DNA of 64,000 bases from contig CP011214.1 of NCBI GenBank assembly GCA_001029755.1, positions 557,767-621,766 on the forward strand, written 5' to 3'. The position numbers were made by a program, and so were the translations under genes. Of the stretch, positions 1-36,650 are shown piece by piece. Under the pieces are notes generated by a model that worked only from the letters and a program-made list of their open reading frames with translations, made no database searches and was not told where the DNA came from. Every line of letters starts with the position of its first letter. The first letter of the stretch is position 1. This DNA comes from Candidatus Woesebacteria bacterium GW2011_GWF1_31_35. Lineage in GTDB: Bacteria > Patescibacteriota > Microgenomatia > UBA8517.

Positions 1-399
1 TGTGCTAGAGGTACATATATACAATCAGAAAGACAGAGTTTGGAAGGTGTACATGCAGTGTTATGTGCCAAGGAAATATTTAAAATGATTAATGATCGAA
101 ATATAATATTTACAGAATTTGAAAGATCTGTTTTTGATAAACACAATCAGGGTAAAGAATTGGTTACAACGTGGGCAAAATCAGTTAATCTAGATTCAGA
201 TACGGAAGTTGATATTTCAGTGGGTGTTGCAGATATCCTGGTGTATGGTGAAGACTTAGGAATTTTTGAAATTGGTACTACCCGTCCCACAAAAATGCTT
301 TTGTTATTAAAATATATTTCAAAGCAAAATTCGTTTTACTCAGTTCATTTTTGGCCTTATGGGTCAAATAAAGCATTTGTTTTTAGAAATTGGATATAG
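1..399 (+). CDS. Hypothetical protein, 5'-truncated at the window edge (C-terminal ~133 aa)
   Basis: Frame is open from position 1 with no in-frame stop upstream of the listed TTG at 40. No recognisable motif. Confidence 0.3.
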   Translation, partial: CARGTYIQSERQSLEGVHAVLCAKEIFKMINDRNIIFTEFERSVFDKHNQGKELVTTWAKSVNLDSDTEVDISVGVADILVYGEDLGIFEIGTTRPTKMLLLLKYISKQNSFYSVHFWPYGSNKAFVFRNWI

Positions 400-411
400 T
401 GTCGTACAATA

Positions 412-1329
412 TTGACAGATGAATGTCTAAAATATAGAATTATTTTAATGCCTAAAGATAATTTTAATTTATCCAAAAAAATTGATAAATTTATAGATTA
501 TTTAGAATTTGATAAAAATTATTCTCCTTTAACAATTAGAAATTATTCTCACTACTTAAATAGATTTTTATTTTTTTTCAATGACGAAAAAATTAGTAAC
601 ATTTCTAATTTAAATGTTGAATTAATAAATAAATACAAAAATAAATTAATAAAATTAAATCTTTCTAATAAAACTTGCGGTTTTCATTTAATTTCACTTC
701 GAAGTTTTTTGAAATGGATGAATAAAAATGGAGAAAATGTTTTAAGTGTTGATCAGATTGATATACCAAAAGCGGAAGCTAATAAATTAATTTTTCTTAA
801 TGGATCTGATGTTGAAAAGTTGTTAAATACTCCCAATACAAATATGTTACAAGGCAAAAGAGATAGAGCGATCCTTGAATTGTTTTATGCCACAGGTTTA
901 CGAATTTCTGAATTAACTTCACTTAATAAAAATAGTTTTGATAATAGCAAAAATGAAATTAGATTTAATAAAAAGACAATATTTCTTTCTACTCGAGCAT
1001 TAAATTGGTTGACTATCTATATAGAAGCTAGAAATGATAAAAATAAAGCATTATTTATAAGTCATAAAGGGTTAGTTACTCGTCTTACTCCCCGATCTGT
1101 TGAAAGGATGTTAAAAAAATATACAAAATTCGCAGAACTTCCAACAAATATCACACCAAAAGCCTTAAGGCATTCTTTTGCCACAGATTTATTATTAGCA
1201 GGAGCTGAAGTTGGTTCAGTTCAAAAAATGCTTGGGCATAAGAATATTTCTACGACTCAAATTTATACCCATGTAACTAATAAACAACTTCATGAGATTC
1301 ATGAGACATTCCATGGAAGGGGTAAATAA
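412..1329 (+). CDS. xerC: Tyrosine site-specific recombinase, XerC/XerD (phage integrase) family
   Basis: C-terminal catalytic region ALRHSFATDLLLAGAEVGSVQKMLGHKNISTTQIYTHV (R..H..R..Y tyrosine recombinase signature). N-terminal SAM-like domain (YLEFDKNYSPLTIRNY). Listed start is TTG at 412; the ATG at 448 (MPKDNF...) is an alternative start. Confidence 0.75.
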   Translation: MTDECLKYRIILMPKDNFNLSKKIDKFIDYLEFDKNYSPLTIRNYSHYLNRFLFFFNDEKISNISNLNVELINKYKNKLIKLNLSNKTCGFHLISLRSFLKWMNKNGENVLSVDQIDIPKAEANKLIFLNGSDVEKLLNTPNTNMLQGKRDRAILELFYATGLRISELTSLNKNSFDNSKNEIRFNKKTIFLSTRALNWLTIYIEARNDKNKALFISHKGLVTRLTPRSVERMLKKYTKFAELPTNITPKALRHSFATDLLLAGAEVGSVQKMLGHKNISTTQIYTHVTNKQLHEIHETFHGRGK

Positions 1330-2318
1330 TGAAAAATAAAACTTTGTTATTTATAATTCCAATTTTTTTAATAGGTGTTGTCTTGGGATCTTTTGGATAC
1401 ACAAAATTATTTGCCAATAAAACCAATAATACAAATGAAGTTACAATAAACCCAACCCCAGAAATATCACAAGAAGAAAATTTAGATACTAATACTGACA
1501 AGGTAGTAAATAAAAATTTAATAAACATTTTACTTTTAGGATCTGGTGGAGGTGGACATTCTGGTGGAAGTTTGTCTGATTCTATAATATTAGTAAGTGT
1601 TGATACTAAAAATAAAAAAATTGGACTTATTTCTATTCCTCGTGATTTTTGGTTTTCGGGCCATAAGATTAATGAAGATCCATCAATAAAAGATGCGGTA
1701 ACAGCAATAACTGGTTTTTCAGTTTCAAATTATATATCAGTAGATTTTAATGGTTTTGTAAAAATAATTGATGGATTAGGAGGGATTGATGTGGATATTA
1801 AGAAATCTTATCTTGATAATTTTTATCCAATAAAGGGGTTGGAAAATGAAACCTGTGGAAAAAATAATGAAGAAATTACGCTTCTTCATCAAAAATATTC
1901 AGGATTTGAACTTGAAAAAAATTTCACTTGTAGGTACGAAAAAATTGAATATGGTGTGGGGATAGCTAAAATGAGTGGAGAAAATACTTTAAAATATGTA
2001 AGATCTCGCCATGGTGATAGTGATTTTGGTAGAAGTAGGCGTCAGTTTGAGGTATTAATAGCGATTACAAAAAAGGTAAAAGTAGAAGACTTTGATAAAT
2101 TTTTAAAAATAGTAAAAACAGATTTAGAATCTTCTAAAATAAAAGAAATAATTTCAAAAATCGAAAATGTTTTAGATTATAAAATATCAACAGTTCAATT
2201 AACTGATGGTAATGTATTAGTATCTTCAAAAAGTTTAAGTGGGGCTTATATATTAATACCCAAATTAGGAATAAATAATTTTATTTCTATAAAGGCCTTT
2301 ATTTTGAATAATATTTAA
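1329..2318 (+). CDS. LytR-CpsA-Psr (LCP) family cell-envelope protein
   Basis: N-terminal TM anchor, then LLLGSGGGGHSGGSLSDSIILVSVDT...ISIPRDFW, typical of the LCP domain. ATG overlaps the xerC stop (TAATG). Confidence 0.8.
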   Translation: MKNKTLLFIIPIFLIGVVLGSFGYTKLFANKTNNTNEVTINPTPEISQEENLDTNTDKVVNKNLINILLLGSGGGGHSGGSLSDSIILVSVDTKNKKIGLISIPRDFWFSGHKINEDPSIKDAVTAITGFSVSNYISVDFNGFVKIIDGLGGIDVDIKKSYLDNFYPIKGLENETCGKNNEEITLLHQKYSGFELEKNFTCRYEKIEYGVGIAKMSGENTLKYVRSRHGDSDFGRSRRQFEVLIAITKKVKVEDFDKFLKIVKTDLESSKIKEIISKIENVLDYKISTVQLTDGNVLVSSKSLSGAYILIPKLGINNFISIKAFILNNI

Positions 2319-2323
2319 AATAT

Positions 2324-3097
2324 TTATTTAATCTCGTATGAAAGAGAAACTGTAATTGAGATTTCTGTTTCCCCAGGTTTTATATTTGCTGTTATTGGTT
2401 CTCCACCACCAAGTCCTTTATCCATCATTGCAATTGGTCTTGGATAATCTATTCCGGTACTTTCAGAAATATTAATAATTTTTCCTAAAGATATTCCAGC
2501 AGATGAAGCCAAGCCTTTTGCCTTATCCTTAGCTTTTTTAACCGCTTCTTCTCTAGCCTTTTGAGTTAGTTCTTCTTTTGTTTTTTCATTAATCTCAAAA
2601 GAAATATTGCCAGCTACATTAGCTCCAGCTTGTGTAGAAACAACTAATACATCGTTTATTTTTTCAAAATTATCTATTTTAACCTCATATGTAGTTGAAA
2701 CTCTATAACCTGATATTTTAAATGGAGTTATATCATAACTATATTCTGGATAAACGTTATAGTTTACTGTCTTAATATCTTTTTCATCTATTCCTAATTT
2801 TTTAAGTTCATTGGTTAACTTTTTAGATTTTGAATTTACAGAATCTTGAACAACTTTTAAAGAAACTCCTTGTTCTTCAATCCCAAGAGAAACTTTAGCT
2901 ATATCAGGAATAGCCGTTACCTTTCCTGTTTCGGAAACAATTAATGGTTCACCTTTAGTCTGAGTCAAAATAGAAATTGGTAAAGAAGGACCCCATTTTG
3001 AATATACAAATAGAAGTATGAAAAATATTAACAATGATCCTGCAAAATTTAAATGTTTCTCATTGTCCATAAAGTCATTATAGCATTTTGTTGACAT
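2324..3097 (-). CDS. SIMPL (DUF541) domain secreted/periplasmic protein
   Basis: N-terminal TM/signal segment. Core region (GYRVSTTYEVKIDNFEKINDVL...) is typical of the SIMPL/DUF541 family. Confidence 0.65.
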   Translation of the reverse strand: MSTKCYNDFMDNEKHLNFAGSLLIFFILLFVYSKWGPSLPISILTQTKGEPLIVSETGKVTAIPDIAKVSLGIEEQGVSLKVVQDSVNSKSKKLTNELKKLGIDEKDIKTVNYNVYPEYSYDITPFKISGYRVSTTYEVKIDNFEKINDVLVVSTQAGANVAGNISFEINEKTKEELTQKAREEAVKKAKDKAKGLASSAGISLGKIINISESTGIDYPRPIAMMDKGLGGGEPITANIKPGETEISITVSLSYEIK

Positions 3098-3125
3098 AAA
3101 ATCTAATCAATGTTTTAATGAAGAT

Positions 3126-3401
3126 ATGAACGGCTATAATGAAGACAAGCTATTAAAAAAGATAAAAATATTACTTGATGATACTGTTGATATAAAAATT
3201 GATGAAAAATTGGATGAAAAAATTGGTAAATTACCAACGAAAACGGAGTTATATAAGCAAACAGATAAAATAATGAAAGAATTAAAAACAGTAAGAGAAG
3301 AACAATCTTTATTATCTCAACACTCTAAAGATAATTCAGATAGACTTGATAATTTAGAAAAAATTCACCCGGCTGGAATTCACGATTTTGCCGTAAATTG
3401 A
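3126..3401 (+). CDS. Small hypothetical coiled-coil protein (91 aa), paralog of 23807-24082
   Basis: Shares the C-terminal motif REEQSLLSQHSKDNSDRLDNLEKIH with the 91-aa ORF at 23807-24082 (REERTLISEHLSDHSDRIETLEKIH). Confidence 0.45.
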   Translation: MNGYNEDKLLKKIKILLDDTVDIKIDEKLDEKIGKLPTKTELYKQTDKIMKELKTVREEQSLLSQHSKDNSDRLDNLEKIHPAGIHDFAVN

Positions 3402-3436
3402 TCAACAGAGAAATGCGATTCGAAGATTTGTAGTTT

Positions 3437-6058
3437 TTATTCTTCTTCCTCTTCATCACCTGTTTTTTCAAGGACTGTGGCTGCTGCGATTAAATCACCT
3501 TTATTGGCAAATCTCATAATGATAACTCCTTGGGTGGCTCTTCCCAATTGTGGAATGTTTTTAACAGGAAGTTTTATAACCTGACCTTTTTTAGAAGTTA
3601 TTACTAGTTGGTCTGATTTTTCTGTAACCATAACAGCACAGGCTAACTCCCCTGTTTTAGCTGAAACTATGCAAGCTTTAACTCCTTTACCTGCCCTTTT
3701 TTGAATTGGAAATAGATCAAATCTGGTTCTTTTACCCAATCCATGAATTGAAAGAGTTAATACATCTCTGAATATTTTCTTTCTTTTATCCTTAATTACT
3801 TCTAATTTGTCAGGAAAAACTTCCATTCCAATTACACAATCATCTTTATCAATTCTTACTCCTGTTACACCTGTAGTAGCTCTACCCATAGGCCTAACAT
3901 TACTTTCCGGGAATCTAATTGACATACCCTTCTTTGTAAGAAGCATTACATTGTCGTTCCCAAAAGTTAAATGTGCCGAAACTAATGTGTCAGTCCCTTG
4001 GAGTTTAATTGCAATTAAACCAGATGCTCTTAAATTTTCAAATTCTTTTAACTCAGTTTTTTTAATTATTCCAGCACTAGTTGCCATGATAAGATTTTTA
4101 GCATTTAATTCTTTACTCATTGGAAGTATTGATTTTATTTCTTCACCTTGTTCAAGATTTAAAAAGTTAACTAATGCTTGACCCTTTGCCTGTCTTGAGC
4201 TTTCTGGAATTTCAAATGCTTTTGTGCCAAAAACACGACCTTTATTGGTAAAGAATAAAATTGTATCGTGGGTAGAAGCGGTTACCAAATGATCAATTTC
4301 ATCCTCTTCTTTGGTGGTCATTCCAATAACACCTTTTCCACCTCTTCTTTGGGCTTTGTAAGTATTTCTAGGAACTCTTTTAATGTAACCTGTCTTAGTT
4401 ACTGTTACTAAAACATCTTCTTTTGCAACCAAATCTTCCTCACTAAACTCCCCTATTTTACTTTTATATATTTTTGTTTTTCGGGTATCTCCAAATTTTT
4501 GTTTTAATTCAGTTAATTCTTTATCGATTATTATTAAAATTCTTGCGGGATCTTTTAATATCGCGATTAATCCATCAATTAATTTTTTAATTTCTTCATA
4601 TTCTTTTTCAATTTTATCTCTCTCTAGTGCTGCAAGGCGTCTTAACTGCATATCAAGAATGGCTGTGGCTTGAATTTCACTGAGTTTAAATCTTTTAACT
4701 AAATTTTCCTTTGCGTCTTCTTGAGTCTTACTTTCCCTAATTGTTTTAATTACAGCATCCAAATTATCTAGTGCAATTTTTAAGCCTTCCAAAATATGGG
4801 CTCTCTTTTTGGCTTCTGTAAGTTCAAAAATTGTTCTTCTAACAACTACTTTTTGTCTGTGTTTAATATATTCAACTAAAATTTGTTTTAAATTTAAAGT
4901 GTGAGGGGTTCCGTCAACGAGTGCAACGAAATTAGCAGGAAAAGTTGTTTGAAGTTTAGTATGTTTAAAAATATTATTTAAAACTGATTTTGGTTTTGCA
5001 TCTCGTTTAAGGTCAATTGCAACTCTCATTCCATCTTTGTCTGATTCATCTCTTAAATCAGCTATTCCTACCAATTTTTTGTCTTTAACAAGTTCAGCAA
5101 TTTTAGCAACCATCTCGGCTTTATTAACTTGGTATGGGATTTCTGAAATAATAATTTGTGATTTCCCATTGTTTCCTTCCGTTATTTCGGCAATTCCTCT
5201 TACTACAATTCTTCCTCGTCCTGTTGCATAGACTTCTTTTAAAGATAATGAATCATAAATTGCACCGCCTGTAGGAAAATCAGGACCTGGTAAAATTTCT
5301 GTAATTTCATCAATTGTCGAATCTGTTTCAAAAGAAATTGTTGCAGGGTTAACTTCTTCTTGTGTAAAAGCTTTTTCTTCACCTGATGCGATTAAATTAA
5401 TTTTTTTAATTACAAAATCTGTTTCTTTTTCTCTTTCATCTTGATTTTCAATTATCACTCTACCTTTTTTAGTCATAGAAAGAATTGCATCAACAACTTC
5501 AGTTAGATTATGTGGTGGAATTTTTGTAGCCATTCCGACAGCAATACCTTCAGAACCCATTAAAAGTAGATTAGGAAGAAGAGCGGGTAAAAAGACCGGT
5601 TCTTTTAATGTTGCGTCAAAGTTATCGATATAATCAACGGTATCCTTTTCCATATCAGCTAAAATGTATTCAGAAATAGCTGATAGTTTCATTTCGCTAT
5701 ACCTCATGGCTGCAGCACTATCTCCATCAACAGATCCAAAATTTCCTTGACCTTTAAGAAGTGGATAACGTAATGAAAAATCTTGAACCATTCTCACTGC
5801 AGTGTCATATACAGCAGTGTCTCCATGTGGATGATATTTGCCTAATACCTCTCCTACAACTTTTGCAGATTTAGAAAATGGACCAGTATGTTTCAATCCC
5901 ATTTGGCTCATAGCAAAAAGGATTCTTCGATGGACTGGTTTTAGCCCGTCTTTAACATCAGGTAGGGCTCTAGCAACAATAACACTCATTGCATAATCGA
6001 CGTAGGATTTTGAAAGTTCTGCAGTTATTTCGGTGTTTAAGATTTTACCAATATCCAT
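3437..6058 (-). CDS. gyrA: DNA gyrase subunit A
   Basis: MDIGKIL...SYVDYAMSVI..RALPDVKDGLKPVHRRIL...AAAMRYSEMKLS...QGNFGS; 873 aa with C-terminal beta-pinwheel repeats. Confidence 0.95.
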   Translation of the reverse strand: MDIGKILNTEITAELSKSYVDYAMSVIVARALPDVKDGLKPVHRRILFAMSQMGLKHTGPFSKSAKVVGEVLGKYHPHGDTAVYDTAVRMVQDFSLRYPLLKGQGNFGSVDGDSAAAMRYSEMKLSAISEYILADMEKDTVDYIDNFDATLKEPVFLPALLPNLLLMGSEGIAVGMATKIPPHNLTEVVDAILSMTKKGRVIIENQDEREKETDFVIKKINLIASGEEKAFTQEEVNPATISFETDSTIDEITEILPGPDFPTGGAIYDSLSLKEVYATGRGRIVVRGIAEITEGNNGKSQIIISEIPYQVNKAEMVAKIAELVKDKKLVGIADLRDESDKDGMRVAIDLKRDAKPKSVLNNIFKHTKLQTTFPANFVALVDGTPHTLNLKQILVEYIKHRQKVVVRRTIFELTEAKKRAHILEGLKIALDNLDAVIKTIRESKTQEDAKENLVKRFKLSEIQATAILDMQLRRLAALERDKIEKEYEEIKKLIDGLIAILKDPARILIIIDKELTELKQKFGDTRKTKIYKSKIGEFSEEDLVAKEDVLVTVTKTGYIKRVPRNTYKAQRRGGKGVIGMTTKEEDEIDHLVTASTHDTILFFTNKGRVFGTKAFEIPESSRQAKGQALVNFLNLEQGEEIKSILPMSKELNAKNLIMATSAGIIKKTELKEFENLRASGLIAIKLQGTDTLVSAHLTFGNDNVMLLTKKGMSIRFPESNVRPMGRATTGVTGVRIDKDDCVIGMEVFPDKLEVIKDKRKKIFRDVLTLSIHGLGKRTRFDLFPIQKRAGKGVKACIVSAKTGELACAVMVTEKSDQLVITSKKGQVIKLPVKNIPQLGRATQGVIIMRFANKGDLIAAATVLEKTGDEEEEE

Positions 6059-6187
6059 AGTTTGTTTTTAACAAAATTAGGCTCTTTTTGAGCCTTATTC
6101 ATTCTACCTTTAATACAACCAAGAATCAACAAGTATAAGTAATAAAAATACTTGTAAATTAGTTATTACTGGTTTACTATAAACTAG

Positions 6188-6574
6188 ATGTCAGGATATC
6201 ACACAAATATAGAAAAGGCAGTCAAGGAAAATCTCTTCTTTAGAAAAGTTCTATTTACCGGAAACAAAAGTCAATTAGTTTTAATGACTCTAAAACCTAA
6301 TGAAGAAATCGGAATGGAAGTTCATAATGAAAATGATCAATTTTTCAGGTTTGAGGAAGGACATGGAAAGGTAATTATTGGTACCGAAGAATTTATTGTT
6401 GGGCCTGACGATGTAGTAATTATTCCATCAGGGGAAAACCATAATATTATTAATACTTCAGAGTCTGAATATTTAAAGCTCTATACTATCTATTCCCCCG
6501 CTCATCATCCAGATGGGACAATTCATGAGACAAAAGAGATAGCTGAAGAAGCAGAAAAGGCAGAACACGAATAA
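6188..6574 (+). CDS. Cupin domain protein
   Basis: Conserved-His cupin motifs (MEVHNENDQFFRFEEGHGKV...IPSGENHNI). Confidence 0.55.
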   Translation: MSGYHTNIEKAVKENLFFRKVLFTGNKSQLVLMTLKPNEEIGMEVHNENDQFFRFEEGHGKVIIGTEEFIVGPDDVVIIPSGENHNIINTSESEYLKLYTIYSPAHHPDGTIHETKEIAEEAEKAEHE

Positions 6575-6594
6575 AAACTTTTTTAATTTTTGAC

Positions 6595-7731
6595 TTATTT
6601 GATTGCTAAAGACACTGCCTTTACCACACTTTTATCAAATGGACTTGGAATGATTTTGGTTGTGGTTGGAGTTTTAATTAGACCTGCTAAATTAATAGCT
6701 GCTTTAATTAACATCTTGTTTGTAATTTTTTTAACTTTATTATTTAAGGCTCCCCTAAAAATTCCAGGAAAAGCCAAGACATTATTTATTTGATTATCAA
6801 AATCACTTCTCCCTGTTGCAACTACCATTGCCCCACCCTTTCCTGCCTCATCAGGCATTATTTCAGGGGTTGGGTTTGCCATTGCAAAAACAATTGCGTT
6901 TTTGTTCATTAAATTTATATCAGTTCTATCGATTAAATTTCCCTTACTTACTCCAATAAATACATCTTTTCCCTTTAATATTTCATGAATACTCCCCTTT
7001 TCATCTTGAATATTAGTAAGCTTAGAAATTCTTTTCTTTTCATTGTTTAAATCAACTCTTCCATCATAAATTGCTCCTTTAGTGTCACTTACAATAATAT
7101 TTTTAAAACCATATTCTAAAAGTAGACCACAAACCGCTGTACCAGCAGCACCAGCACCGTTAATTACTATTTTTACATTTTTGTCTTTTTTAACTACTTT
7201 TAAAGAATTGATAAGTGCTGCTAGTACTACTACTGCTGTTCCATGTTGATCATCGTGCATAACAGGAATATCAAGTTCATTAATAAGTCTTCTTTCAATT
7301 TCAAAACATCTAGGTGCATTTATATCTTCAAGATTAATTCCACCAAAAACAGGAGCGATTAATTTAACTGCTTTTATTATTTCTTCTGTATCTTGAGTAT
7401 CTAAACAAATTGGAAACGCGTCAACTCCTCCAAATTTTTTAAAGAGTACCGCTTTTCCTTCCATTACTGGGATTGCGCCGTAAGCACCAATATTTCCAAG
7501 GCCTAGTACTGCCGAACCATCTGAAATTACCGCAATTGTATTTGATTTTAGGGAAAGTAAAGATGCTAGTTTTGGGTTTTTGGCAAGTTCTAAAGATACT
7601 CCTGCCACACCCGGAGTATAGACTAAAGATAAATCTAATTTATTTTCTAGGGGAGTTTTAATTAATGTTCCAATTTTACCTTTATATTTTTTGTGAAGCT
7701 TTATTGAATCTTTATATACATCAGATTTCAT
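6595..7731 (-). CDS. maeB: NAD(P)-dependent malic enzyme (short MaeB-type, oxaloacetate-decarboxylating)
   Basis: VYTPGVAGVSLEL...VISDGSAVLGLGNIGAYGAIPVMEGKAVLFKKFGGVDAFPI plus the GAGAAG NAD-binding motif. Confidence 0.8.
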   Translation of the reverse strand: MKSDVYKDSIKLHKKYKGKIGTLIKTPLENKLDLSLVYTPGVAGVSLELAKNPKLASLLSLKSNTIAVISDGSAVLGLGNIGAYGAIPVMEGKAVLFKKFGGVDAFPICLDTQDTEEIIKAVKLIAPVFGGINLEDINAPRCFEIERRLINELDIPVMHDDQHGTAVVVLAALINSLKVVKKDKNVKIVINGAGAAGTAVCGLLLEYGFKNIIVSDTKGAIYDGRVDLNNEKKRISKLTNIQDEKGSIHEILKGKDVFIGVSKGNLIDRTDINLMNKNAIVFAMANPTPEIMPDEAGKGGAMVVATGRSDFDNQINNVLAFPGIFRGALNNKVKKITNKMLIKAAINLAGLIKTPTTTKIIPSPFDKSVVKAVSLAIK

Positions 7732-18245: not shown

Positions 18246-18860
18246 ATGAAAGACAAAAGTTTTGAAAAGATTTTAAAAAGTAAATCTTCTCAGGGTATGA
18301 CCCTGATTGAACTTCTAGTTGTTGTTTCAATTATTTCTATCTTAGTTTTTGTAATTACTGTTTTTCTTCGACCACAAATTTTTAAGGCGAATGATGCAAG
18401 ACGCAAGGCTGAACTTAAAAGAATTGGTGTTGCAGCTGAAGAATATGAAAAGGATAATAATTGTTACCCCCCAACCAGTTTGGTAACTTGTGTCAATGGT
18501 GGTATAGGACTGCGCCCTTATATTGATGTTATCCCCTGTGATCCTGTAACCAAAAATTCTTATTTTTATGAACCTGATCCTAATAATGTTGCCTGTCCAA
18601 AATGGTATCGAATTTATGCCAGTCTACAAAATCAAACTGATGTTGATTATATCCCAAACATTGGACCAAGCTCTGCATATAGCTTTATCTATACTAGTCC
18701 TAATGCTCCTGCATTACCTACATCAATTCCCAATGTGAATATATATTATGGCTGCATTAATGGATCTTGTAGACAACTTATCGAGGGTGAAGAATGTACC
18801 CCTAACTGGGATTCAATGGATAATTGCAACTCACGTTGCCCTGAAAATCCATGCATATAA
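18246..18860 (+). CDS. Type IV pilin-like protein
   Basis: SSQG|MTLIELLVVVSIISIL prepilin motif, then ANDARRKAELKRI; Cys-rich C-terminus. Confidence 0.7.
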   Translation: MKDKSFEKILKSKSSQGMTLIELLVVVSIISILVFVITVFLRPQIFKANDARRKAELKRIGVAAEEYEKDNNCYPPTSLVTCVNGGIGLRPYIDVIPCDPVTKNSYFYEPDPNNVACPKWYRIYASLQNQTDVDYIPNIGPSSAYSFIYTSPNAPALPTSIPNVNIYYGCINGSCRQLIEGEECTPNWDSMDNCNSRCPENPCI

Positions 18861-34157: not shown

Positions 34158-35549
34158 ATGTCTTCCGAATATGAACCAGAAATAAAAGAACTTCTTTTTT
34201 CTGATAAATACGTTTTAAAATCCGGAGTTTTATTGGTCGAAGGTTATAATAATTGTGCATTATATGATATAAATTCTGGGAATGTTTACTCGTTAAATAA
34301 TAGTGCTAGGAATATCTTAACTGGTAAAACAGACAATTCATTCTTTTGGGAAAAATTAAGAGATATGAATTTGTGTACAACCAATACTGACAAAGAAAAG
34401 TCCATGTTGAATGAGTTGACGTATGTACCAAGTTTGCAATTTGCGTGGTTTGAAATAGTATCAAAAGCTTGTAACGAGAATTGTCTTCATTGTTATGGAG
34501 ATTTTATGCCACCAACCTATAGAAAAGGATTGGATAAATTTCATTCTTTTGACAATTCAAATTTAAAAAAGGAGGAAAAATTAAGTTTTGTACAATGGAA
34601 AAGTCAAATAAAAAATGTTCACGATTTAGGTTGCGAAACTTGTCAATTTATAGGTGACGAGCCGTTCTTGTATAGAGGAGAAAAAGGAGAATCTGTTTTA
34701 GATCTTGCCGAATATGCAAAAGAAATAGGTTTTAAATTTATTGAAATATTTACAAACGGAACTTTACTTACTCGAGAAATGATTAATCGAATAAAAGACT
34801 TGGGAGTTAATATTGCAATTTCTCTTTATTCAATTGAACCTGAGATACACGATAGAATTACCAGAACAAGAGGAAGCCATAAAAAAACAATGGAAGCACT
34901 AGAAATGCTTAAGGAAGCAAGTATTCCAACAAGAGTTGAAACTGTTCTAATGAAACAAAATGAGACTAGTGCCGAAGAAACTCAAAGATTTATAGACAAA
35001 ATGGGATTTTCTCATAAACGACTTGATGTATTAAGGCAAAACGGTAGAGGGGATAATCTTAATCTACTGCCGAGTAACGATTCACTTTTAAAACATGGTG
35101 TCATGGCTTCTCCAAATTTTAGTATTAATAAAGATATGTTGGCTCGAAATTTATCAAACAATAGTTGTTTGTCTGGAAAGATTGCAATAACTGATAATGG
35201 AGATGTCTTACCCTGCGTATTCTCTAGAGATCAGATAGTTGGAAATGTTTTAGAAAAATCACTGGCTGAAATAGTTGATGGCAATAGACTAATAAAAGTT
35301 TGGCAAAATACAAAAGATTGTGTGCAAGTCTGTAAGGACTGTGAGTATCGATATTGCTGTACCGATTGTAGACCTTCTTCTCTTGGAACAAATCAAAATG
35401 TAGGAGAATATTTAACCGCTCCATATCCAAAATGTGCTTATAACCCATATGAAGGTAAATGGGGAAAAGGATACTGGAAATTAGATCTTGAACATAAACC
35501 AATTTATATTAATATATTGGAAGGGGGTGAAGAAATAAATGAAAGCTGA
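34158..35549 (+). CDS. Radical SAM peptide-modifying enzyme with an N-terminal PqqD-like RRE and a C-terminal SPASM domain (RiPP maturase-like)
   Basis: Residues ~15-75 (YVLKSGVLLVEGYNNCALYDINSGNVYSLNNSARNILTGKTD) match a PqqD/RRE fold. Cx3Cx2C radical SAM cluster is CNENCLHC. C-terminal Cys-rich SPASM (C..C...C, CKDCEYRYCCTDC). Confidence 0.85.
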   Translation: MSSEYEPEIKELLFSDKYVLKSGVLLVEGYNNCALYDINSGNVYSLNNSARNILTGKTDNSFFWEKLRDMNLCTTNTDKEKSMLNELTYVPSLQFAWFEIVSKACNENCLHCYGDFMPPTYRKGLDKFHSFDNSNLKKEEKLSFVQWKSQIKNVHDLGCETCQFIGDEPFLYRGEKGESVLDLAEYAKEIGFKFIEIFTNGTLLTREMINRIKDLGVNIAISLYSIEPEIHDRITRTRGSHKKTMEALEMLKEASIPTRVETVLMKQNETSAEETQRFIDKMGFSHKRLDVLRQNGRGDNLNLLPSNDSLLKHGVMASPNFSINKDMLARNLSNNSCLSGKIAITDNGDVLPCVFSRDQIVGNVLEKSLAEIVDGNRLIKVWQNTKDCVQVCKDCEYRYCCTDCRPSSLGTNQNVGEYLTAPYPKCAYNPYEGKWGKGYWKLDLEHKPIYINILEGGEEINES

Positions 35550-35778
35550 ACTTAACTTAGAACCAGAAATTGTTTTGGTTACACCGGCAAAAGTAGGTGG
35601 TTGTCCGCCAAATGATTGCCCGCCGAATGCGGCTTGCAGACCAAATACGGATTGTTATCCCAACAATTGTCGACCAGCATTGGGGCCATGTGGTCCGGAT
35701 ACACTGCCTTGCTATCCAAATGGTAAAGCACCGGAGCCACCAAGACCATTTCCAAGACCACCTTGTTATCCTGGTTAA
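35539..35778 (+). CDS. Cys/Pro-rich precursor-like peptide (79 aa) with eight Cys-X-Pro repeats; candidate RiPP substrate
   Basis: Leader-like MKAELNLEPEIVLVTPAKVGG, then CPPNDCPPNAACRPNTDCYPNNCRPALGPCGPDTLPCYPNG....PPCYPG. Start overlaps the rSAM stop by 11 nt. SD-like AAGGGGGTGA sits 8 nt upstream. Locally GC-rich with CCG Pro codons that are atypical for the rest of the window. Confidence 0.6.
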   Translation: MKAELNLEPEIVLVTPAKVGGCPPNDCPPNAACRPNTDCYPNNCRPALGPCGPDTLPCYPNGKAPEPPRPFPRPPCYPG

Positions 35779-36650
35779 GTGAGTCTTAGGGGTTTAATAA
35801 GAATACTCACCCAGTTTTTTAGAGATTGGGTAAGTAGTGTCTTTCCTGCAACTAGAGCATAATCATGTGGGTTTATATTGGCTTCAAGAGATGAATCTTG
35901 CACATTAAGATCTTTGATTTTTTCCTCTAAAATCATTTTTTCTATTCGAGGAATTGCAAACTTATCAAAGTATTTAATATGTTCTGGCCAAAAAATTTTA
36001 CTGGCTGAGTATTCTGTACAAAATGCAAATATTTCAGAGGCAAATCTTGGATTTGGGAAAATAATATTAGTTTTGGTTGATATATTATCTTTTATGTAAT
36101 AACTTTTCGCAGTTTTTAGAAAACTAAGATTTTCTTTTTTATCTGAAGGCCACCAAAGTTTATAACTATCCCAATAAACATGTCCAAACTCATGCAAAAT
36201 AGTTGCATAATAACTTTCTTTTGTAAAATATGGATCTTTGGTTATTTTATAATATTTTTTATGTATCTCTGTAAACGGAGTTAATAATCCCCCACATGGT
36301 CCATTGATTACTTTTTTTGTATTTTTCTTTAAAAGATTTTTTATATCTTTAATATAAATTCCTGAACGCCATCCTATTTGATCAAGATCTATTATTTTAT
36401 TAATATTATGTGGTAATTTATATAAATTATAACTGCGATTTTTTATCGAAATTTTTTCTAAGTTTAAATTTTTGTCAAAGGTCCAAAGGTAAACATATTT
36501 TGAGTCAAAACTAATTACTGGAATATTTTCTATTCTTTCTTTATATTTAAAAACATAATTTAGTTTTGGGTTCCAAAGAATATCTAGTGCCTTTTCAATT
36601 GCAAGCAAATCTTCTCTTCTAGCAATATAGTTTTCAAACATATAAGTCAA
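35775..36650 (-). CDS. HExxH-motif protein (putative zinc metallopeptidase)
   Basis: YATILHEFGHVYWD contains HEXXH, with a Glu ~45 aa downstream (gluzincin-like spacing). Convergent with the precursor peptide gene; stop codons overlap. Confidence 0.4.
   Translation of the reverse strand: MTYMFENYIARREDLLAIEKALDILWNPKLNYVFKYKERIENIPVISFDSKYVYLWTFDKNLNLEKISIKNRSYNLYKLPHNINKIIDLDQIGWRSGIYIKDIKNLLKKNTKKVINGPCGGLLTPFTEIHKKYYKITKDPYFTKESYYATILHEFGHVYWDSYKLWWPSDKKENLSFLKTAKSYYIKDNISTKTNIIFPNPRFASEIFAFCTEYSASKIFWPEHIKYFDKFAIPRIEKMILEEKIKDLNVQDSSLEANINPHDYALVAGKTLLTQSLKNWVSILIKPLRLT

Follow-up and report, generated by a model that had tools for sequence, protein, structure and literature searches.

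A 64,000-nucleotide stretch of the genome of Candidatus Woesebacteria bacterium GW2011_GWF1_31_35 (contig CP011214.1, positions 557,767–621,766; hereafter, the window) encodes a compact cassette in which the gene for a radical S-adenosylmethionine (rSAM) enzyme with a SPASM domain overlaps that for a 79-aa peptide with eight Cys-x-Pro (C-x-P) units, and this in turn converges with a gene for an HExxH protein. Comparative genomics shows that enzyme and peptide are paired as putative maturase and substrate, and the architecture, as read from the sequences and the predicted fold, is that of a pathway for peptides made by ribosomes and modified after translation (RiPPs) that depends on a RiPP recognition element (RRE) and an rSAM/SPASM enzyme. 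On balance we lean towards a working RRE-dependent maturation cassette in which the leader guides modification of the C-x-P units one by one and the HExxH protein contributes to processing.

The family is, as far as we found, unnamed and outside every named enzyme and peptide family tested: no Pfam or NCBIfam model names either the enzyme family or the peptide. Full-text literature yielded no description of C-x-P repeat precursors or of the family, although subscription-only papers were outside the search and an earlier description is possible. To our knowledge, candidate phyla radiation (CPR) bacteria have genomes of less than 1 Mb, in which very few clusters of biosynthetic genes have been recognised.

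The precursor peptide

All eight Cys residues of the window peptide lie in C-x-P units (CPP, CPP, CRP, CYP, CRP, CGP, CYP and CYP), in agreement with the original prediction, and more than three such units occur in only this one of the 522 open reading frames (ORFs) of at least 25 aa in the window. Its composition is extreme (Cys, 10% versus 0.7%, and Pro, 27% versus 3.8% in the long ORFs of the window), and the GC content of the gene is 47.5% against a genome background of approximately 30%. Relative to the closest relative (locus L005; loci are denoted by L numbers), 11 codon changes are synonymous and 4 nonsynonymous, the units retain all their Cys and Pro residues, and the alternative frames are interrupted by stops in L005. 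Judged by this comparison, the reading frame is under purifying selection and the ORF is a real gene. Separately, the only other ORF in the window with three C-x-P occurrences (204 aa; 18246–18860, + strand) begins with a type IV pilin-like N terminus (GMTLIELLVVVSIISIL); its three occurrences look like chance.

The peptide is conserved beside the enzyme. In 75 of 84 loci, the best small ORF lying no more than 1.5 kb from the enzyme gene has at least two C-x-P units; of 6,896 other small ORFs of the same loci, only 28 do. A stop-to-stop re-scan added L040, L046, L070 and L077 (14–28 units each) and gave nine units for L071 and four for L078, so that a small leader-plus-core peptide adjoins the enzyme in approximately 79 of 84 loci over several phyla; neither scan found a C-x-P peptide beside the enzyme in L031, L051, L066, L072 or L081. 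Where the two genes share a strand, the peptide lies directly downstream of the enzyme in 59 cases and directly upstream in 13. With the conserved leader and the signature of purifying selection, these counts describe a precursor encoded together with its enzyme, whose leader is conserved and whose core varies. We also considered that the 79-aa ORF could be a chance open frame, with the enzyme acting on another substrate. The exact peptide is indeed missing from a collection of 5.8 billion protein clusters, in which a search returned seven unnamed relatives (the best 85% identical), but this indicates that the precursor ORF went uncalled in the public annotations of this genome, and conservation across phyla, the excess of synonymous changes, the extreme composition and the interrupted alternative frames all speak for a gene. 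The locus statistics and the codon comparison with L005 effectively refute the chance reading, the probability of which we regard as negligible.

Across 72 unique peptides, 614 of 650 Cys (94%) fall in C-x-P; Pro occupies position +2 of Cys at a frequency of 0.94, and no other offset exceeds 0.31. The x position accepts nearly any residue (most commonly R, S, W, N, F, Y, P, G and Q; P, R, Y and G in the window), and precursors carry between 2 and 28 units. Of the longer motif C-x-P-N/D/A/G proposed originally, the C-x-P part holds family-wide, whereas N, D, A or G after Pro is a local feature only. Most members are 45–130 aa long and, beyond a conserved short leader, contain no further domain, and no Pfam or NCBIfam family matches them.

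Leaders share a short motif. The form E-P-T/E-I-E/V-L-V-T/S occurs in Patescibacteria, Chloroflexota and Thermoproteota (archaeal locus L045 retains the bacterial-type leader EEPTIELL), and Negativicutes leaders read P-K-W-x-x-P-E-M/I-x-x-W followed by an acidic run. The leader of the window peptide had been described as ending in GG; as a double-glycine processing site this did not survive comparison, as the leaders of the closest relatives end in ..KLAG|C and ..KAGS|C and GG is absent elsewhere. A double-glycine leader with export by a C39-peptidase ABC transporter (PCAT type) was accordingly rejected, because GG is not conserved and no such transporter is linked: none was found among recurrent neighbours or in the window between 31 and 40 kb.

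The maturase

The 463-aa enzyme belongs to the radical SAM superfamily, by its CX3CX2C motif and a PF04055 match (aa 101–279; E = 1e-23; 84.7 bits versus a cutoff of 29.5), and to the SPASM subfamily, by its seven-Cys motif and a PF13186 match (aa 338–396; E = 1e-8; 35.7 bits versus a cutoff of 21.5). The CNENCLHC motif and the Cys-rich SPASM region had both been pointed out originally. In an alignment of 23 family members, C105, C109, C112, C337, C353, C392, C395, C401 and C404 are invariant and C426 nearly so; the SPASM spacing is C-x15-C ... C-x2-C-x5-C-x2-C ... C, with G348-x4-C353 conserved, and an eighth invariant Cys is absent from the alignment. The sactisynthase RumMC2 has C-x18-C at the start of this motif, with three Cys ligands at auxiliary cluster I (AuxI) and four at AuxII (PMC8188230), whereas the anaerobic sulfatase-maturating enzyme (anSME) and SuiB have an extra remote Cys ligand, and PqqE an extra Asp (PMC8188230). 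On sequence, therefore, the seven-Cys pattern without an eighth Cys appears close to that of thioether-forming RumMC2, unlike those of anSME and SuiB, and the missing eighth Cys makes AuxI compatible with binding of a substrate Cys, although this is no proof of it.

The N-terminal region is RRE-like in predicted structure. In the AlphaFold (AF2) model, strands at residues 24–28, 33–37 and 42–46 are followed by helices at 48–54 and 61–69, in a block with a predicted local distance difference test (pLDDT) score of 80–94, so that residues ~9–80 have the modelled topology of an RRE; G23, G29, D37, S45 and L67 are invariant in this domain in the family alignment. Over the whole enzyme the mean pLDDT is 74 (above 90 in the rSAM core, with the last part of SPASM poorly modelled). 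The top ranks of a Foldseek search against PDB were the RRE-bearing SkfB, SuiB, CteB and TigE, aligned over 406–485 columns at 13–18% identity; alignments to RRE-bearing maturases span nearly the full enzyme length, and that to the RRE-less anSME is shorter (4k38; approximately 367 columns; E = 4.5e-11). At the level of sequence, a profile of residues 1–98 searched against PDB sequences and Pfam up to E = 10 returned noise only, with no PqqD match, and NCBIfam gave no match to the domain either. We have dropped the sequence-level assignment for this reason; the PqqD-like RRE claimed originally thus stands as a predicted RRE-like fold and not as a PqqD relative by sequence.

No NCBIfam model reached its cutoff for the enzyme. 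The best scores were for AhbD (91 bits), NirJ2 (90), the SPASM part of TIGR04193 (86) and StsB (84), against cutoffs of 175–625; the models for sacti- and ranthipeptide synthases remained below theirs (StsB, 83.7 versus 625; AlbA, 58.9 versus 850; SkfB, 43.7 versus 300 bits), and there were weak matches to the GrrM/OscB and YhhB cyclophane synthases. Naming the family through its cultured relatives was tried and abandoned, as, scanned against NCBIfam, the enzymes and peptides of Sporomusa ovata and Pelosinus also stayed below all cutoffs and matched no peptide family. Outside the window, the enzyme is 100% identical to a hypothetical protein (P0001; A2422_01195) of Candidatus Woesebacteria bacterium RIFOXYC1_FULL_31_51.

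The HExxH proteins

The convergent HExxH gene, which had been suggested as a partner of the cassette, proved to be one. A homolog (family 1) lies beside the enzyme in 18 distinct loci by tblastn, nearly all with an enzyme identity of at least 44%, in three arrangements: usually convergent downstream, upstream in L013, and downstream on the same strand in the Dojkabacteria-type loci L036 and L037. Conversely, reverse look-ups from HExxH proteins led to an rSAM/SPASM gene and a C-x-P peptide in three of three cases (one of the loci, L085, is on the same contig as L018). H153, E154, H157, Y159, E206 and H262 are invariant in family 1, and E213 nearly so; in a structure model with a pLDDT of 87, HExxH lies in a predicted helix (144–162) and E206 and E213 in another (201–220), giving a HExxH motif with a downstream third ligand. 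Foldseek found no solved relative of the model at E < 0.1, no Pfam or other family model matched at its cutoff, and Pfam scans of individual members gave only motif-level zincin-like matches. A first search found 50 family 1 proteins and an exhaustive profile search of 1.84 billion entries found 141 representatives, none with a Pfam domain or a name.

A second family of approximately 250 aa takes the same place in 12 Patescibacteria loci without family 1 (Table 1), with invariant HExxH...H-x3-E and DNELRxRLN and no Pfam match. Homology between the two families went undetected and was rejected (hhalign, E = 0.16); two distant ~250-aa matches of the profile search, P0290 and P0297, were also rejected as family 2 members. 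Family 1 is the conserved partner in Microgenomates and family 2 in other Patescibacteria. That two unrelated HExxH families hold the same position speaks well for a function of metallopeptidase type as part of the cassette in CPR bacteria, and the peptidase role that we infer for the window protein draws on gene linkage and its invariant HExxH...E. In Negativicutes, Chloroflexota and archaea the HExxH protein is missing, which makes it accessory and not essential to the core system.

Distribution and genomic contexts

A word-indexed protein search found 474 enzyme homologs; 183 relatives were located in contigs with one genome per species, and 80 loci were fetched for the study of neighbourhoods. 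The relatives belong to Woese-, Roizman-, Ames-, Levy- and Curtissbacteria, WWE3, Dojkabacteria, Chloroflexota, Latescibacterota, Krumholzibacteriota, Bathyarchaeia and Thermoproteota, and to the cultured Negativicutes Sporomusa, Pelosinus, Lucifera, Propionispora and Dendrosporobacter. The cassette occurs in unrelated genomic contexts and is an independent unit. One locus, L086 (CP129472.1, 841,695 bp; 274–7610), contains tyrS, recG, an HExxH gene, an 83-aa C-x-P peptide, the rSAM gene, rpmF, nusB, rnc, rpsP and a KH protein gene; because the cassette occupies the same site in L086 and in the window, its insertion there is older than the split of these lineages. A Y1-type (IS200-like) transposase ORF adjoins the cassette in L003 (6878–7552, + strand) and also in L014 and L036. 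Together with the varied contexts, these neighbours hint at mobility of the cassette.

In 24 Negativicutes loci (within L043–L084; for example, L064:265–5514 of Sporomusa ovata DSM 2662 and L044 of Pelosinus baikalensis), the rSAM–peptide pair stands beside tig, clpP and clpX, and the cores are regular repeats after an acidic leader: (CWPRQQ)n, (CFPRQT)n, (CYPRQ)n and (CRPCPPSQ)n. Such repetitive precursors might be cut further into many identical small cyclic units. In a Deltaproteobacteria metagenome-assembled genome (MAG; JAFGNJ010000005.1, L040:5245–5787, + strand), a protein of approximately 172 aa beside the rSAM homolog carries 14 C-x-P units between a twin-arginine-like N terminus (RRGFIKNSL...) and a PG_binding_1 domain at the C terminus (Pfam, E = 1e-13), which suggests an exported, wall-associated form. 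Archaeal C-x-P peptides (L041:5–310 and L045:3582–3965, both + strand; Bathyarchaeia and Thermoproteota MAGs) have a charged, heptad-like tail at the C terminus (...LTAEIEALKKKVSK). Other than the two HExxH families and the Negativicutes tig–clpP–clpX genes, no accessory gene recurs; clusters of ABC ATPases and of histidine kinases show a scattered distribution, and no transporter or immunity gene was found in the window or recurrently linked in the loci.

The missing transporter and immunity genes, the clp neighbours, and the L040 and archaeal forms are hints that point away from a classic secreted bacteriocin. They also favour a reading in which the C-x-P region, instead of being the precursor of a small secreted product, is a structural or envelope-associated module stiffened by cross-links, and the HExxH protein acts in maturation or turnover and not as a leader peptidase. 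We consider this very unlikely, since most members, at 45–130 aa with a leader and no further domain, have the classic RiPP layout; it also bears on what the product does, and the enzymology could be the same.

Proposed maturation and its chemistry

In the proposed scheme, the E-P-x-I-x-L-V-T motif of the substrate leader would dock on the RRE-like domain, as the predicted fold and the conservation of the motif suggest, and the rSAM/SPASM domain would then modify each of the eight self-contained core units in turn. The substrate Cys may be held at the incompletely ligated AuxI, and its sulfur would be joined to a carbon of its own unit (the α-carbon of x or a carbon of Pro) in a thioether of the sactipeptide or ranthipeptide type. 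The convergent HExxH protein, presumably zinc-dependent given its linkage and invariant HExxH...E, may cut off the leader or trim the Pro-rich tail.

The geometry of the precursors narrows the candidate reactions. Units stand in tandem with a smallest Cys spacing of 3 (CxPCxP), Pro is directly followed by the next Cys in 38 units, and six peptides terminate exactly at the Pro of the final unit, so that the C-x-P unit has to suffice on its own and no acceptor outside it is universally available. It follows that either the sulfur is joined within the unit, to the α-carbon of x or to Pro, or the Cys alone is altered.

Alteration of the Cys alone would resemble the chemistry of anSME, with oxidation to formylglycine or another Cys-derived residue, Pro at +2 as a turn or recognition element, and a poly-aldehyde peptide as product. 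The sulfatase maturation motif recognized by anSME and by the formylglycine-generating enzyme (FGE) is C/S-x-P/A-x-R, the core of which is the C-x-P that is invariant throughout the family; a self-contained unit makes an acceptor residue unnecessary, Arg follows Pro in most Negativicutes units, and anSME is itself an rSAM/SPASM enzyme and is among the structural matches of ours (above). Nonetheless, Arg at +4 is not conserved and, where present, sits at +3, and our literature search turned up no formylglycine-bearing RiPP. With the anSME model TIGR03942 the enzyme obtains 52.4 bits, where the cutoff is 349; this places it outside that family and no nearer to anSME than to other SPASM enzymes. 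Furthermore, anSME is without an RRE and has a fully Cys-ligated AuxI (PMC8188230), in contrast to the seven conserved Cys here. We regard formylglycine-type chemistry as improbable, although it is a serious rival and the main one to a thioether. Grouping of the enzyme with anSME or another non-RiPP clade and lack of conservation of the small ORF were among the tests that the original prediction had set for itself, and both fell in favour of the RiPP reading: the TIGR03942 score is far below cutoff, the best structural matches are RRE-bearing RiPP maturases, and the ORF is conserved.

A radical modification in which the sulfur is no partner in a cross-link is, in our estimate, quite improbable. 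It could be epimerisation at the α-carbon or a three-residue cyclophane cross-link (C–C or C–N) through x, with Cys and Pro serving as structural or recognition elements, or Cys as a cluster ligand or hydrogen donor. Repeated three-residue motifs modified by rSAM enzymes are a hallmark of cyclophane RiPPs, the weak matches to GrrM/OscB and YhhB fit this picture, and Negativicutes cores contain W/F/Y-P-R, reminiscent of the WPR motif in which WprB cross-links Trp-C5 to Arg-Cγ (PMC11851443). However, WprB is of the twitch type and its RRE is a protein of its own, in contrast to a fused RRE–SPASM enzyme (PMC11851443), the conserved residue is Cys and not x, and x can be nearly any residue, providing no general aromatic partner. 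Because x is not aromatic throughout the window peptide, a cyclophane reaction cannot be general and is suggested for the Negativicutes cores only.

Thioether formation remains the chemistry that we favour, although with slightly less than even confidence. Cys-rich precursors of RRE–SPASM enzymes are typically sacti- or ranthipeptides; this, the seven-Cys pattern and the presence of CteB, SkfB, StsB and AlbA among the best matches favour it over the others. Its most specific form, an undescribed three-residue thioether macrocycle in which the Cys sulfur is linked to a Pro carbon or to the α-carbon of x, with 2 to ~28 such rings per precursor, is tentative and in itself unlikely. If true, the family would be a RiPP class of its own, one of the most widespread in CPR bacteria and present also in cultivable Negativicutes and in archaea. 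More broadly, there is a realistic chance of new cross-link chemistry.

Several observations weigh against the maturation scheme as a whole or in part. No characterised enzyme is close, given 13–18% identity to solved structures, and by the top NCBIfam scores thioether formers are not preferred to enzymes of the AhbD/NirJ type. AuxI could be completed by a remote Asp as in PqqE, so the argument from an open site is only suggestive. To these are added the noise returned by the N-terminal profile, the lack of transporter and immunity genes, and the absence of the HExxH protein from the Negativicutes, Chloroflexota and archaeal versions.

Genomic setting in the window

The genes that the original prediction had described, including the 11-nt and 4-nt overlaps, are all present in the sequence (Table 1). 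The peptide ATG lies 11 nt within the rSAM ORF (ATGAAAGCTGA) and is preceded by the purine-rich GGGGGTGA; the convergent HExxH ORF overlaps the peptide ORF by 4 nt. Homologs of the HExxH protein begin at a position equivalent to the ATG at 36641 (MFENY...) in family alignments, so this is probably the true start (288 aa) instead of the listed TTG. The HExxH ORF directly follows the recG stop codon, and the two genes may share a transcript. Housekeeping genes flank the cassette, as predicted: rpmF, nusB, rnc, rpsP and a KH protein gene on the rSAM side, and recG and tyrS on the other, named from the window ORF list and from Pfam labels in the syntenic locus L086. Promoter-like matches were no commoner here than in shuffled AT-rich sequence; the position of the one ahead of the rSAM gene fits.

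Table 1. Features of the cassette in the window and loci with the second HExxH family.
Feature	Position	Strand	Basis
rSAM/SPASM peptide maturase, 463 aa	34158–35549	+	ORF list; PF04055 and PF13186 matches
CX3CX2C motif CNENCLHC (C105, C109, C112), SAM-binding [4Fe-4S] cluster	34470–34493 (aa 105–112)	+	Invariant in 23 family members
RRE-like N-terminal domain, aa ~9–80	34182–34397	+	3 or 4 β-strands then helices; predicted fold
SPASM domain, seven conserved Cys	35166–35435	+	Pfam match; family alignment
Precursor peptide ORF, 79 aa	35539–35778	+	ORF list; composition; conservation
Precursor leader (MKAELNLEPEIVLVTPAKVGG), motif E-P-x-I-x-L-V-T	35539–35601	+	EPTIELVT-like motif in relatives
Precursor core: eight Cys-x-Pro units, Pro-rich stretch ahead of last unit, stop codon	35602–35778	+	
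HExxH protein, zincin-like orphan family, ORF 291 aa, HEFGH at 36180–36194	35775–36650	−	
Promoter-like TTAAGA-17-TATAAT, 10 nt 5′ of rSAM start codon	34120–34148	+	Weak
Family 2 HExxH proteins: L011, L015, L020, L023, L026, L027, L029, L032, L033, L035, L055, L068	L011:2981–3703 (example)	+	

Implications and comparison with known systems

Retention of the cassette across Woese-, Roizman-, Ames-, Levy-, Curtiss- and Daviesbacteria, WWE3 and Dojkabacteria suggests a product of importance to the mostly symbiotic lifestyle of these bacteria. For enzymology, the simplicity of the rule (94% of Cys in C-x-P) in a clade without a characterised member marks the family as a place to seek new rSAM chemistry, and members in cultivable Sporomusa, Pelosinus, Lucifera and Propionispora make the question directly testable.

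Among known systems, the sacti- and ranthipeptide maturases (CteB, RumMC2, StsB, AlbA, PapB and NxxcB) share the fused architecture of RRE (here RRE-like by predicted fold), rSAM and SPASM and a Cys-rich precursor adjoining the enzyme; CteB is a top structural match, RumMC2 has a similar seven-Cys pattern, and alignments to the StsB and AlbA models cover most of the enzyme. They differ in that here no family model reaches its cutoff, identity to the solved structures is low, and the precursor has neither the hairpin separation of donor and acceptor nor a fixed acceptor (CxxxD, NxxC) but 2–28 tandem C-x-P units. Three-residue cyclophane systems (triceptides; WprB) are alike in their many tandem three-residue motifs, in Pro within the motif (WPR) and in an rSAM maturase, and some have a dedicated protease (PMC11851443; see also PMC12957482). 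Their donor is an aromatic ring and not Cys, and Pro is in the middle of WPR, whereas it is third in the motif here. With anSME, the family shares the rSAM/SPASM enzyme type and the putative action on Cys in a C-x-P context, and it differs in the RRE-like domain, the AuxI ligation and the model score given above and in the sulfatase substrates with Arg at +4.

SCIFF is comparable as a two-gene system of peptide and rSAM/SPASM enzyme that is conserved vertically in a whole bacterial class among housekeeping genes. The peptide motif is another one, the window peptide matches no family model, and no SCIFF maturase model is among the top matches listed for the enzyme or reaches its cutoff.

A further parallel is with CPR ATP-grasp (graspetide) 'branch 2' loci, which combine a SPASM rSAM maturase with two zincin-type peptidase families and in most of which the precursor is unrecognised (Makarova et al. 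2022, PMC8939145). No ATP-grasp gene lies near the window cassette, none forms a recurrent cluster in the 80 loci, and here the precursor is identified. In L001 (6789–9434), 1–4 kb downstream of the cassette, stand genes for an M16 peptidase and a 7TM_transglut protein and an ATPgrasp_ST gene (at ~3.7 kb). This locus may be a link to the branch 2 loci, and part of the present system may already have been noted without its substrate. The C-x-P peptides, whose ORFs are largely unannotated, may account for CPR loci with SPASM and zincin genes that have had no known precursor.

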